IMG/VR virus record: IMGVR_UViG_2541047920_000001
DNA: 47,511 nt
Reading direction: 5' to 3' (one strand)
Source: a virus
Taxonomy: Duplodnaviria > Heunggongvirae > Uroviricota > Caudoviricetes
The notes under the pieces are model-generated. The model did no database searches, was not told the origin of the DNA, and was given only the letters and a program-made list of their open reading frames with translations. Shown here one piece after another: positions 9,367 to 12,723 of the stretch. The position numbers and the translations under genes are program-made. Every line of letters begins with the position of its first letter. Within the stretch, counting starts at the first letter, position 1.

Positions 9367-10032
9367 ATGACTGTTGCTGATTTCAAACGCCCCAAATTGG
9401 AGCTCCCAAACGGGGCAAAAAAACTATTACTGCACTCTTGCTGTGCTCCATGTTCCGGTGAAGTGATGGAGGCGCTTCAGGCCTCGGGAATCGACTACAC
9501 CATCTTTTTCTACAACCCGAACATTCATCCTCAGAAAGAGTATTTAATTCGTAAGGATGAGAATATTCGCTTTGCTAAACAACACGGCGTGCCATTTATT
9601 GATGCTGATTACGACACAGACAACTGGTTTGAGCGAGCCAAAGGAATGGAATGGGAGCCTGAACGAGGGATCCGTTGTACCATGTGTTTTGACATGCGTT
9701 TTGAGCGGACTGCACTGTATGCCGCTGAAAATGGTTTCAGTGTGATCAGTAGCTCACTGGGCATTTCACGCTGGAAAAATATGCAGCAGGTTAACGACTG
9801 TGGACGGCGAGCCGTCGCGCATTATCCGGGCATGGTGTACTGGGATTATAACTGGCGAAAACAGGGCGGCTCTTCCCGCATGATTGAAATCAGCAAGCGC
9901 GAACAATTCTATCAGCAGGAATATTGTGGCTGCGTGTATTCACTGCGCGATACCAATCTACACCGCAAATCTCAGGGACGCCCTCTAATCAAAATTGGTC
10001 AACTGCACTACGGTAAGGAAGGACAGGAATGA
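9367..10032 (+). CDS. queH: QueH-like (DUF208) epoxyqueuosine reductase homologue
   Basis: N-terminal …[14 protein letters not shown]… and later …RCTMCF… and …EYCGCVYS… cysteine motifs that I recognise as the QueH/DUF208 signature; about 221 aa (alternative start 9346). Confidence 0.65.
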
Positions 10033-10644
10033 TTTTATATTATGCCAACGGAGCGTAGCAGTGTTTCTATATATAGTACGCCTACCTTAATTTTCAAATA
10101 ATCATGATTAATGAGCAGGTCATCAGTGCAAGCAATGACCTGCTCATCTTGTTGAAATTAGAGGAAATCTTGCAGCCATGATATGGCTTAAAATAACGTT
10201 TGATTATTTTACCTGCTGTTTGTCCCTGGTTTAAAGTCGGTTGTCTGATTTGATTACGCGCAACTGACGCTTACGTATTGAAGTAACGAGCACGAAGACA
10301 CATATTTATCAGTGCCTGTATACGTCAAGAGCAGGAGATTTATGTGCTGGTTCTCAAATGCACGCTGGCTATTGTGGCTGTAATGGCAATTTATTGTCTT
10401 GTTATTGTTCTTATGGATCACCTTTCTGATTGATTTCATATTGGCGAGGTAGCGGTAGTTAAGTAGAATGGCTGCGGGTGCTTGAGGCTATCTGCCTCGG
10501 GCATGAACACCAACGGCAGATAGAGAAAAGCCCCAGTTAACATTACGCGTCCTGCAAGACGCTTAACATTAATCTGAGGCCAATTTCATGCTAGACACAT
10601 GTAGGTTAGCCTCTTACGTGCCGGAAGGCAAGGAGAAGCAGGCT

Positions 10645-10800
10645 ATGAAGCAGCAAAAGGCGATGTTAATCGCCCTGATCGTCATCTGTTTAACCGTCAT
10701 AGTGACGGCACTGGTAACGAGGAAAGACCTCTGCGAGGTACGAATCCGAACCGGCCAGACGGAGGTCGCTGTCTTCACAGCTTACGAACCTGAGGAGTAA
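10645..10800 (+). CDS. hokD: Hok/Gef family membrane toxin (HokD/RelF-like)
   Basis: 51-aa product MKQQKAMLIALIVICLTVIVTALVTRKDLCEVRIRTGQTEVAVFTAYEPEE; RBS GGAGAAG; an in-frame upstream extension gives the listed ORF 10588..10800. Confidence 0.85.
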   Translation: MKQQKAMLIALIVICLTVIVTALVTRKDLCEVRIRTGQTEVAVFTAYEPEE

Positions 10801-10870
10801 GAGACTAGGCGGGGGAGAAATCCCTCGCCACCTCTGATGAGTCAGGCATCCTCAATGCACCCGCGCTTAA

Positions 10871-10889
10871 CCCGCTTCGGCGGGTTTTT
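10871..10889 (+). terminator. Rho-independent terminator downstream of hok
   Basis: CCCGC-TTCG-GCGGG hairpin followed by TTTTT. Confidence 0.7.
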
Positions 10890-10966
10890 CTAGCATCTAT
10901 CTGGTTGACAAAGTCGATGTTAAATGGAAATATGGTTGACACCAAAACAACAAGGATATTACGGTC

Positions 10967-11581
10967 ATGCAGAATTTATCTCAACAGTTGTTAGAAGCAT
11001 ATGACAAGGAGTGCCGCAAAGAGCTTTCGATCGCGTTAGCACAGGCTTATCTTCATTCGCATATGAAGGCAAAAGAGTTTGGTTCTTTTTGGGCTCAAGC
11101 ACAGTCATATTTGCGCTGGTTTTATGCCGATGCATTGCTTGAGAATGCGGCTAAGCGTGTGGGGCTGGATTTTGAAGTCGGTAGCAATGCTGCTAAAAAT
11201 TGTAAACACATTGCGATTCACTCGAACAACTGGAAAATGACGGCACATCATTTATCGGGTAATGCGCCACTTCCTAAGCAGGCATTGTATAGAGCTGTTT
11301 ACGCTAATCAAAATTATGAATTGAATTTTGGGGATGAAAATGCCGACTCCCTGGATGGGAGAGCGTCTGGTGGACATGTTTATATGTTACATGATGGCAG
11401 TAATCAGCACTTGTCCAAACTGAATTTAACTGTTCCTTCTTCGGATAATTACGGGATTCTTTATACTGAGTCTTTACCAATTATGACGATGGTAGAAGTT
11501 GAAGCAGAAAATGTGGATTCTGAGATTGAAGATAAAATCAAGATTCTTACCGAACAAATAATTAAATCACAGCAATCATGA
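10967..11581 (+). CDS. Hypothetical protein, upstream partner of the HTH-ImmA/IrrE gene (candidate effector)
   Basis: 204-aa ORF with no motif I recognise; stop overlaps the start of the next gene (ATGA), implying translational coupling; lower GC than flanks by eye. Confidence 0.6.
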   Translation: MQNLSQQLLEAYDKECRKELSIALAQAYLHSHMKAKEFGSFWAQAQSYLRWFYADALLENAAKRVGLDFEVGSNAAKNCKHIAIHSNNWKMTAHHLSGNAPLPKQALYRAVYANQNYELNFGDENADSLDGRASGGHVYMLHDGSNQHLSKLNLTVPSSDNYGILYTESLPIMTMVEVEAENVDSEIEDKIKILTEQIIKSQQS

Positions 11582-12723
11582 GCATGAATATCGCACAAAC
11601 ACCATTTACTGATAAATCGTTTAATCCTCGTCGCCTTGAGGAGGCAAGAGAGGCAAAAGGGTTGACGATGGCTGAACTTGCCAGAGTGCTCAATATTTCA
11701 AGACAAGCTATTTCGTCATTTGAGAAGGGGTTGAAGTCTCCCTCTGCTGATACACTTTCTGCAATAGCCAAGGTGTTAGGATTTCCAGAACGATTTTTCT
11801 TAGCCTCCAGTGCTTCTCCATCTCTGGAGGGGGCGATTCATTTTAGAAGTCGTTCAACTGCGACCAAAAAGGCTCGAGTTACAGGGAAAACACGTGGGCG
11901 TTGGGCGGCATTAATATTGGATGAATGTCTAAAATATGCTCAATTACCAGATGTGGTTCTGCCTGAATTCGATATTATTGATTTTGAGGTTCTGTCTCTA
12001 TCTGATATTGAGGATATGTCCACCCAATTAAGGCGTTTTTGGGGGTTAGGTGATGGTCCAATACTCAATTTAACTAGACTTGTTGAAAATAAAGGAATCG
12101 TGGTTTCTCATTTACCTTCTGGTGAGAAAGTTGATGCCTTTTCGTTCTGGCATAATGGGCGGCCTTTAATTATGTTAGATAGCTCGAAGACGGCTGTTCG
12201 CATGCGATTTAGTCTTGCTCATGAACTTGGCCATTTAATTATGCATAGGGCAGTGGAGGATGACTACCTGAATGATAAAGAATTATTCGACCTGGTGGAG
12301 TTGCAGGCCGATTATTTTGCCTCCAGCTTTTTAATGCCAGCCACCACTTTCGGGCGTGAATTTTATAGTCCAAATTTATCAGCGTTAGAACGATTAAAAC
12401 TACGTTGGATTACATCTATCGGTAGTATTGCCATGAGGAGTCATAGCCTTAAGTTAATCAGCGATAATCAGAAAAGCTATATATTTAAGCAATTAGCGCC
12501 ATTCCATCGTAGGGAGCCGTTAGATGATGCAATCCCAAAAGAAGAGCCTGAGTTACTTAATAAGTTACTTTTACTTCTTGATAAGCATTCAATCATAAAG
12601 GTAACTGAGTTAACTGATATCTTTGCTCTTCCCTTAAATGAGTTATCTGCAATTACACGATTTAAAGAATCAGATATGATTCATTCTGACAATGTTATTT
12701 CATTTACCATAAAACAAAAATAA
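11578..12723 (+). CDS. HTH-XRE DNA-binding domain fused to ImmA/IrrE-family zinc metallopeptidase (DUF955-like) with C-terminal extension
   Basis: 381 aa; N-terminal HTH (…LTMAELARVLNISRQAISSFEKG…); HEXXH motif in …SLAHELGHLIMH…; low-GC region ending in a terminator. Confidence 0.8.
   Translation: MSMNIAQTPFTDKSFNPRRLEEAREAKGLTMAELARVLNISRQAISSFEKGLKSPSADTLSAIAKVLGFPERFFLASSASPSLEGAIHFRSRSTATKKARVTGKTRGRWAALILDECLKYAQLPDVVLPEFDIIDFEVLSLSDIEDMSTQLRRFWGLGDGPILNLTRLVENKGIVVSHLPSGEKVDAFSFWHNGRPLIMLDSSKTAVRMRFSLAHELGHLIMHRAVEDDYLNDKELFDLVELQADYFASSFLMPATTFGREFYSPNLSALERLKLRWITSIGSIAMRSHSLKLISDNQKSYIFKQLAPFHRREPLDDAIPKEEPELLNKLLLLLDKHSIIKVTELTDIFALPLNELSAITRFKESDMIHSDNVISFTIKQK

Follow-up and report, generated by a model that had tools for sequence, protein, structure and literature searches.

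The region from 10441 to 10890 of the window (the whole stretch of caudovirus DNA analysed, 47,511 nucleotides long, IMG/VR record IMGVR_UViG_2541047920_000001) is very probably a complete hok/mok/sok type I toxin-antitoxin cassette of the hokD/hokW subtype, which follows the mechanism of its family and whose relBE-less state is ancestral. At the sequence level it contains a Hok reading frame, a mok frame with its own Shine-Dalgarno (SD) sequence, and a Sok gene. The predicted folds contain the tac/fbi pairing, the masking of the mok SD by ucb together with the switch to tac/ucb and SD/dcb pairing, and a metastable 5′ hairpin (Table 1). The locus is already known, an identical sequence being present in RefSeq and a near-identical phage locus having been experimentally characterised, and it holds no new biology. 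The present results correct the reading of such loci: a hokD-type gene without relBE is an intact, ancestral and more widespread cassette, not a remnant that is missing its partners. For the identical chromosomal sequence, PGAP annotates just the 51-aa CDS, under the name hokD, and leaves the mok frame, the Sok gene and the mRNA elements unannotated. Since PGAP labels the CDS only and the Rfam 'sok' model matches the sense strand, the antitoxin is easily missed by readers of the annotation.

Table 1. Features read from, or predicted in, the hok/mok/sok region (positions of the window)
Feature	Position	Strand	Description and basis
hok promoter-like site	10441..10469	+	TTGGCG (-35), 17-nt spacer, TAGAAT (-10); ends 7 nt before the conserved 5′ end
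Putative full-length hok mRNA, ~415 nt	10476..10890	+	5′ end from start of Rfam match and conserved GGGUGCUUGAGG; 3′ end from T run of terminator
tac, translational activator element	10476..10487	+	GGGUGCUUGAGG; at the mRNA 5′ end; motif conserved in relatives
Leader hairpin	10488..10523	+	CTATCTGCC (10488-10496) with GGCAGATAG (10515-10523); within inverted repeat I1
Predicted Sok antisense RNA gene, 71 nt	10526..10596 (start 10596)	-	15-nt single-stranded 5′ tail, 52-nt hairpin, UUUU
ucb, upstream complementary box (anti-SD)	10528..10536	+	AAGCCCCAG; pair probabilities
mok SD	10576..10579	+	GAGG; equivalent to R1 GAGG 105-108 (PMC9841398)
mok reading frame, 70 codons	10588..10800	+	In frame with hok, common stop; layout as annotated for mokW/hokW of 933W
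sok promoter	10603..10631	-	-35 TTGCCT (10631-10626), 17-nt spacer, -10 TAACCT (10608-10603); start at about 10596; read from the sequence
Second long-range helix, 5′ arm	10607..10617	+	UAGCCUCUUAC; partner 10797-10807 spans the hok stop codon; closed full-length RNA
dcb, downstream complementary box	10609..10613	+	GCCUC; adjoins the sok -10; pair probabilities
hok toxin gene, 51 aa	10645..10800	+	SD AGGAG at 10631-10635; Pfam HOK_GEF; PGAP name hokD
Small hairpin presenting UACG	10778..10792	+	Tyr47 codon TAC (10783-10785) and G10786
3′ stem-loop	10808..10829	+	GGCGGGGGA-GAAA-UCCCUCGCC; fold and consensus fold of relatives
fbi, fold-back inhibitory element	10850..10862	+	CCUCAAUGCACCC; 12 pairs with tac and one bulged U
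Intrinsic terminator	10869..10890	+	Hairpin 10869-10886 with CCCGC-UUCG-GCGGG core, then T run; fold and sequence

A sequence-only reading of this DNA had identified a 51-aa Hok/Gef-type ORF at 10645-10800 with an in-frame upstream extension from 10588. The toxin is confirmed by the Pfam family HOK_GEF (E=1.2e-23; 82.9 bits against a cut-off of 22) and by the 100% identity of the protein, residue for residue, to HokD/RelF of K-12. The extension turned out to be the mok frame: the 70-aa ORF matches PHROG 251, 'MokW-like host killing' (7.7e-33), and its ATG is kept in at least 90% of the 37 related mRNAs described below. By analogy with the rest of the family, translation of hok is probably coupled to that of mok. 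PADLOC was found to have no model matching Hok.

The ends of the hok mRNA are set by homology and should be read as putative. The Rfam family RF01794 (model positions 1-157) matches 10476-10650 end to end with 114 bits against a gathering score of 59. The match lies on the plus strand, so that the model, despite its name, reports the hok leader here and not the strand of the antisense gene. The promoter-like site upstream agrees with the consensus at 9 of 12 positions; however, the scan finds about as many sites in shuffled sequences, which makes the match weak on its own. Its -10 hexamer and the bases that follow are common to 933W, HannyBb and Tritos, and 10441-10469 probably serves as the hok promoter. 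As to the other end, a strong terminator had been proposed from the sequence. The hairpin and the T run are indeed present at that place, but the consensus scan for terminators listed neither this site nor any other terminator-like site, and the word 'strong' thus rests on the fold and on a reading of the sequence. One likely reason for the omission is that the maximal stem uses two of the T's. The stem-loop at 10808-10829 is expected, by analogy, to end up as the final hairpin once the mRNA has been processed; the equivalent hairpin of R1 shields the truncated mRNA from 3′-to-5′ exonucleases (PMC9841398).

The RNA was folded at several lengths, all folds being equilibrium predictions. The 417-nt transcript (10476-10892) has a predicted energy of -172.2 kcal/mol against -131.5 ± 6.5 kcal/mol for shuffled sequences (z=-6.28; none of 100 shuffles as good). 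In the full-length RNA, tac pairs with fbi with probabilities of 0.90-1.00, and the duplex of these two elements reaches -21.5 kcal/mol (z=-3.6 against shuffled 3′ UTR). Similarly, ucb 10530-10536 pairs with 10574-10580 in the mok SD region (p 0.97-0.99), with A10577 unpaired opposite C10533. R1 has the same unpaired-A geometry, and the substitution A106G strengthens the stem there (PMC9841398). The bases of the leader hairpin pair with a probability of at least 0.97; an inverted repeat had been noted in the leader at about 10489-10522, and the hairpin at 10488-10523 agrees with it within a base or two. The second long-range helix, 10607-10617 with 10797-10807, corresponds to the inverted repeat I4 (11 nt, 91% complementary) and forms with p 0.7-0.8. 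It was considered as the ucb/dcb pair and ruled out, given the published positions of the two boxes, with the anti-SD ucb at about +55-60 and dcb overlapping the sok promoter (PMC9841398).

Shortening the RNA at its 3′ end changes the predicted fold. When the RNA ends at 10846 or 10840, tac pairs with ucb 10528-10534 (p 0.86-0.96) and the mok SD pairs with dcb 10610-10613 (p 0.90-0.95 for the end at 10846 and 0.57-0.59 for that at 10840). With the end at 10850 or 10844, the tac:ucb probability is just 0.11 and 0.34, respectively, so whether the open state is predicted depends on where the 3′ end is assumed to lie. In the first 125 nt alone (10476-10600), 10478-10488 pairs with 10494-10504, which sequesters tac; this, too, is an equilibrium prediction only. 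In the nascent transcript, tac is accordingly modelled as pairing with the region of the leader hairpin's 5′ arm, 10494-10504, in a predicted metastable structure. The modelled closed (tac/fbi, SD/ucb), open (tac/ucb, SD/dcb) and nascent states match the published pathway of R1 (PMC9841398). A check for conserved leader elements had been proposed by the sequence-only reading; tac, fbi and ucb were all located, and dcb in addition.

Other RNA models were tried on the same DNA and rejected. On the hok 3′ UTR, the isrK model reached 26 bits where its gathering score is 50, and the rsmX, snoRNA and SRP models gave E-values of 0.08 or worse within 9900-11200. These sub-threshold matches are ascribed to chance or to a generic two-hairpin resemblance.

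One scan of species-representative genomes gave 53 related loci, from which 37 distinct full-length mRNAs (Escherichia, Shigella, Kluyvera, Pseudocitrobacter, Photorhabdus, and Pantoea) were aligned with MAFFT. The consensus fold of these 37 relatives, computed without input from our model of the elements, recovers the tac:fbi closing helix, the ucb/SD stem extension, the 3′ stem-loop, and the hairpin at Tyr47. The tac:fbi pair 4:409 is U-A in 22 of the relatives and C-G in 11. Cognate tac and fbi covary at two positions among Escherichia, Kluyvera, and Photorhabdus, the second compensatory change being a distal one from G-C to A-U that appears in the table of duplexes; this table leans towards pairing, since the partner was picked by complementarity. 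Column-wise covariation was scored for tac:fbi pairs 1-6 only, because the fbi bulge shifts the register in the Photorhabdus rows. A separate duplex search placed fbi 45-56 nt past the stop codon in nearly every related locus. In the ucb/SD stem extension, pairs 61:101 and 65:96 show 13 double-sided changes each. The pairs of the leader hairpin (13-20 with 42-49 of the consensus) are kept in the 37 relatives, with a few double-sided changes. The second long-range helix gives no evidence of covariation, since its consensus pairs (141-147 with 329-337) are essentially invariant among the same relatives.

The antisense gene lies opposite the leader. Its coordinates were transferred from the sokW misc_RNA annotated in 933W through a gap-free alignment. 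The predicted Sok is complementary to the mok SD (10576-10579) and to the AUG at 10588, and its fold has an energy of -28.7 kcal/mol (z=-5.12). Of its 71 bases, 7 are not those of SokW, and 6 of these 7 fall in the 5′ recognition tail; despite these differences Sok is still fully complementary to its own target, because it is encoded in cis. Both hexamers of the sok promoter are identical in 933W/Sp5. The consensus promoter scan did not list this promoter, the reason being that no more than 3 of the 6 bases of its -10 agree with the consensus. In the study of Takada et al. (2021), the mutagenic primer YO-421, used for the promoter-less sokW, alters exactly the -10 hexamer that corresponds to 10603-10608. 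This -10 mutation of sokW made the hokW-sokW locus toxic and abolished protection (PMC8621323). Of the two modes of regulation that the sequence-only reading had offered, the first, antisense control by the locus itself, is supported at the sequence level by a minus-strand Sok gene with promoter, tail, and terminator hairpin at 10526-10596. Sok itself is probably expressed.

The closest characterised relative is hokW-mokW-sokW of the Stx2 phages 933W and Sp5 (VT2-Sakai), whose DNA is 94% identical over a stretch that begins about 20 nt before the mRNA start and runs to fbi. As in the window, the 933W locus has a 51-aa Hok, an in-frame mok of 70 codons and a 71-nt antisense gene, and the hexamers of the sok promoter as well as the pairing of tac with fbi are the same. 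Within fbi, the sole difference between the window and 933W is the bulged base. HokW differs from the Hok of the window in a few C-terminal residues, and there is no homology in the terminator or in the -35 region of the hok promoter. The surroundings differ as well, the 933W cassette being located near the end of the record beside L0139-L0141. The hokW-sokW locus was characterised as a toxin-antitoxin system of type I in which HokW is toxic and goes to the inner membrane (PMC8621323). sokW expressed from its own promoter protects the cell, with a partial dependence on RNase III and Hfq, and the locus gives a twofold benefit for phage release after induction (PMC8621323).

The cassette also shares the layout of R1 hok/sok (parB), the prototype of the family, namely tac, fbi, ucb, the mok SD, and dcb, with the sok promoter overlapping dcb. 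The closed and open conformations, together with an A in the mok SD that stays unpaired and faces a C of ucb, are common to both in prediction. At the protein level the distance is larger, about 44% identity being reported between HokW and R1 Hok (PMC8621323). The window differs from R1 in that mok is in frame with hok, and the Sok hairpin is made longer by 16 nt that are inserted in the leader compared with the Rfam model. Since the R1 system is plasmid-borne and the present cassette is prophage-borne, classical post-segregational plasmid stabilisation is not an obvious role for it.

Work on R1 and hokW suggests how the locus might operate. The weak promoter at 10441-10469 would give rise to a stable mRNA of about 415 nt, the 5′ tac of which would be held in a local hairpin during synthesis. 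Once the 3′ end is made, tac (10476-10487) would pair with fbi (10850-10862) and ucb (10530-10536) would mask the mok SD (10576-10579); in this closed full-length form the RNA would be neither translated nor bound by Sok. Slow 3′ trimming would then remove fbi, with tac passing to ucb and the mok SD to dcb (10610-10613). In the open RNA, mok would become translatable and hok would be translated through coupling. As long as the cassette is transcribed, the short-lived Sok (10596 to 10526, minus strand) would pair with the mok start region, block translation and trigger cleavage by RNase III. When the supply of Sok stops, the 51-aa Hok would be made and would insert into the inner membrane. We infer by analogy that the locus in the window is transcribed, that its promoters are active, that Sok is expressed, that the mRNA is processed at its 3′ end, and that the system is active.

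A cassette that looks intact may nevertheless be an inactive relic, which, like the chromosomal hok loci of K-12, does not reach useful levels of toxin or antitoxin and which hitch-hikes in its prophage. Chromosomal hokA, hokB, and hokC are reported, in work cited in the preprint 10.1101/2025.08.07.668861, to be unable to mediate post-segregational killing, so an intact sequence is no guarantee of activity. In addition, the promoter hexamers are weak by consensus, and decayed copies do occur among the relatives: one locus (L009) has a mutated tac, indels and a decayed leader and still encodes a protein 100% identical to HokD. In the window, however, no functional element is missing, and the predicted folds keep all helices intact. 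The differences from the active hokW-sokW fall in loops, in the fbi bulge and in the Sok tail, and none of them affects a paired position or a promoter hexamer. The compensatory changes in helices across genera point to continuing selection on the RNA structure, and the 94%-identical hokW-sokW locus is active in vivo (PMC8621323). With this evidence we regard the relic as highly unlikely and a working cassette as the better reading.

The sequence-only reading had described the hok gene as retained without relBE, having seen no relB/relE-like ORF in the 600 bp upstream. The absence itself is real and reaches well beyond those 600 bp, as tblastn with K-12 RelB and RelE gave no match over all 47.5 kb of the window (best E-values 1.9 and 7.1). 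It is the history implied by 'retained' that has to be reversed. In the alignment with the Qin prophage of K-12, homology to the window begins only at about 10631, the hok SD, and the DNA upstream of this point in K-12 is relB-relE. K-12 DNA thus matches the window only from the hok ribosome-binding site on because relBE replaced the leader there; it sits where the leader, the mok start, and sok belong. From the hok SD through fbi and the terminator the two DNAs are nearly identical. The prophages are also of the same type, with rspAB and the integrase beside them and ydfU/ydfT downstream of the toxin gene. In contrast to the window, K-12 hokD (relF) is without the hok promoter, tac, ucb, the mok start and SD, and the sok gene with its promoter. 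The relBEF arrangement is defined by relB-relE directly before a leaderless hokD and by their joint transcription, which is documented for K-12 (PMC5120126). In the window, by contrast, the leader is complete and neither RelB nor RelE has a match.

The related loci lead to the same conclusion. Twenty of them that are without the exact tac motif were scanned with Rfam, and the hok-leader model matched 16. Of the four that it did not match, three (L010, L031, and L047) have relBE upstream; the remaining one is the decayed copy mentioned above, which has no relBE. Among 5426 complete E. coli genomes, the leader (10470-10640, at least 80% coverage) was found in 4287 and the relE-hokD junction in 1167, which makes the leader-bearing form about four times as widespread. 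The ancestral hokD ORF has been described as having about 70 codons and as having been cut to 51 through the integration of relBE (PMC6379469). Taken together, the K-12 alignment, the leaderless relBE-linked copies, the published history (PMC6379469), and the genome counts establish that hok without relBE is the ancestral and commoner state and that relBEF of K-12 is the rearranged form.

The chromosome of E. coli GABEEC10 contains the window region with 100% identity, as part of a lambdoid prophage integrated beside rspAB. The genes of this prophage follow in the order int, xis, exo, dicB, repressor, cro, replication genes, DUF977, QueH, and hokD; hokD is followed by another two genes, by ydfU and by ydfT, the last of which is a Q-like antiterminator, and the lysis and terminase genes come after these. 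This gene order identifies the prophage as a full-length relative of the cryptic K-12 prophage Qin. The cassette has queH on one side and a RosmerTA pair on the other and thus falls in the early-right (nin-like) part of the prophage, and the whole region is common to the temperate phages HannyBb, Tritos, and mEp460. The upstream gene that had been called queH-like is QueH (Pfam 2.7e-65). The small ORFs between queH and hok (10104-10439) gave no match to a PHROG family.

Read-through from queH was the second mode of regulation proposed by the sequence-only reading. In its strong form, hok would be driven mainly by transcription from queH or the early-right operon, and not by its own promoter together with Sok. 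The hok gene is co-oriented with cro, the replication genes, queH, and the gene for the Q-like antiterminator, so antiterminated early transcription during induction should cross hok. A 13-bp hairpin (10111-10147) follows queH, but its tail is U-poor and the terminator scan did not call it. Moreover, in Sp5 HokW is made only after prophage induction, when sokW RNA disappears (PMC8621323). On the other hand, the promoter-like site stands at the right distance from the conserved 5′ end, and the logic of the regulation works only if the RNA begins with tac. Contexts that lack queH, for instance 933W, also have the cassette, which there extends from some 20 nt before +1 as far as fbi and is likewise found in thousands of E. 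coli genomes, and hokW mRNA is already present in Sp5 lysogens before induction (PMC8621323). In lytic growth, control by read-through could come on top of control by Sok but cannot replace it. Given the promoter-like site, the hairpin after queH, and the cassettes found without queH, read-through is unnecessary as an explanation, and we consider it extremely improbable as the main drive of hok. Control by its own promoter and by Sok is preferred, although early-operon transcription during induction could still pass through the cassette.

The position in the early-right region, with the replication genes before the cassette and the Q-like antiterminator after it, also permits a further proposal, namely that the cassette is wired to induction: antiterminated early transcription, meeting the sok promoter head-on, would silence it, and Hok would act as an early helper of lysis. 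Judged from gene orientation only, this is rather unlikely. If it were true, transcriptional interference would provide a mechanism for the unexplained RecA-dependent disappearance of sokW RNA that was reported in Sp5 (PMC8621323).

Finally, the small hairpin at Tyr47 presents UACG and is predicted here to be a recoding motif of the TadA type, in which A-to-I editing would change Tyr to Cys. The motif and its editing have been described for the hok family (preprint 10.1101/2025.08.07.668861), and HokD is among the previously characterised toxic controls in the assay of that preprint. Among the 37 relatives, the stem pairs 310:324 and 311:323 of this hairpin show 14 and 12 double-sided changes, respectively.

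The hok reading frame carries a candidate site of RNA editing (see the table). Its UACG lies in a hairpin loop closed by a 3-bp stem, in which two pairs show 14 and 12 double-sided changes among 37 distinct full-length relatives of the hok mRNA. A-to-I recoding, which converts Tyr to Cys, was reported for the hokB, hokC, hokD, and hokE mRNAs (preprint 10.1101/2025.08.07.668861). The hairpin fits this reported recoding.

Coordinates of the features discussed (positions in the window)
Feature	Position	Strand	Description
queH	9367-10032	+	epoxyqueuosine reductase QueH; Pfam 2.7e-65; PHROG 3217
Hairpin after queH	10111-10147		perfect 13 bp, -22 kcal/mol, U-poor tail
29-aa ORF	10344-10433	+	MLVLKCTLAIVAVMAIYCLVIVLMDHLSD, strongly hydrophobic; GTG start, 6 nt past AGGAG
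35-aa ORF	10436-10543	-	antisense to the hok leader and Sok 3' end
UACG hairpin	10778-10792	+	Tyr47 codon TAC and next G (10783-10786) = TadA recognition sequence
RosmerTA-like pair	10967-12723	+	products: one of 204 aa, the other of 381 aa with HTH_3 and Peptidase_M78

Loci related to the hok cassette in other genomes differ in the state of the leader. An E. coli copy (L009, 381-700) encodes a HokD protein with 100% identity, yet its leader is decayed: the pairing element tac is mutated, and single-base deletions are found in ucb and in the Sok hairpin. No relBE is present at this locus. This decay is a second route of inactivation, distinct from that in K-12, where relBE lies in place of the hok leader, the mok start, and sok. 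Paired leader matches about 630 bp apart or less occur in Photorhabdus temperata and an Enterobacteriaceae genome (L040, at 556-703 and 1185-1333; L032, at 1-140 and 533-703), an arrangement in the DNA that points to putative tandemly repeated hok cassettes. HokD of the E. coli type (96-100%) is also encoded on tiny contigs in assemblies of the non-enterobacterial species Acinetobacter idrijaensis (L021, 275 bp) and Xanthomonas pisi (L026, 431 bp), and the simplest explanation is that E. coli or phage DNA contaminated both assemblies.

The Rfam family RF01794, named 'sok antitoxin', has 157 positions. It matches the hok-sense leader strand at 10476-10650 and in 16 related loci, and in none of these does it match the roughly 70-nt antisense gene. 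Annotation based on RF01794 would place Sok on the wrong strand and with the wrong length.

The 35-aa ORF has matches in three PHROG families without a known function (7511, at 2.4e-18; 19126; 19835), and its equivalent in phage HannyBb is annotated as a CDS. These families are probably collections of spurious ORF calls over hok leaders. The 29-aa ORF lies in the 440-bp gap between queH and hok, which is otherwise without annotation. It has no match among the PHROG families, and its DNA is also kept in phages HannyBb, Tritos, and mEp460 and in E. coli B and C. The ORF could encode a small membrane peptide or be mere noise.

An overlapping gene pair begins 77 nt past the hok terminator and matches the RosmerTA defence pair in PADLOC (RmrT, 7.5e-10; RmrA, 5.5e-102). 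Since this match adjoins the terminator, hok/sok neighbours a second defence module of the toxin-antitoxin type in the nin-like region of the prophage. On the upstream side, the identical RefSeq record has a truncated methyltransferase pseudogene ahead of queH, which is here a lone queH in a lambdoid phage.
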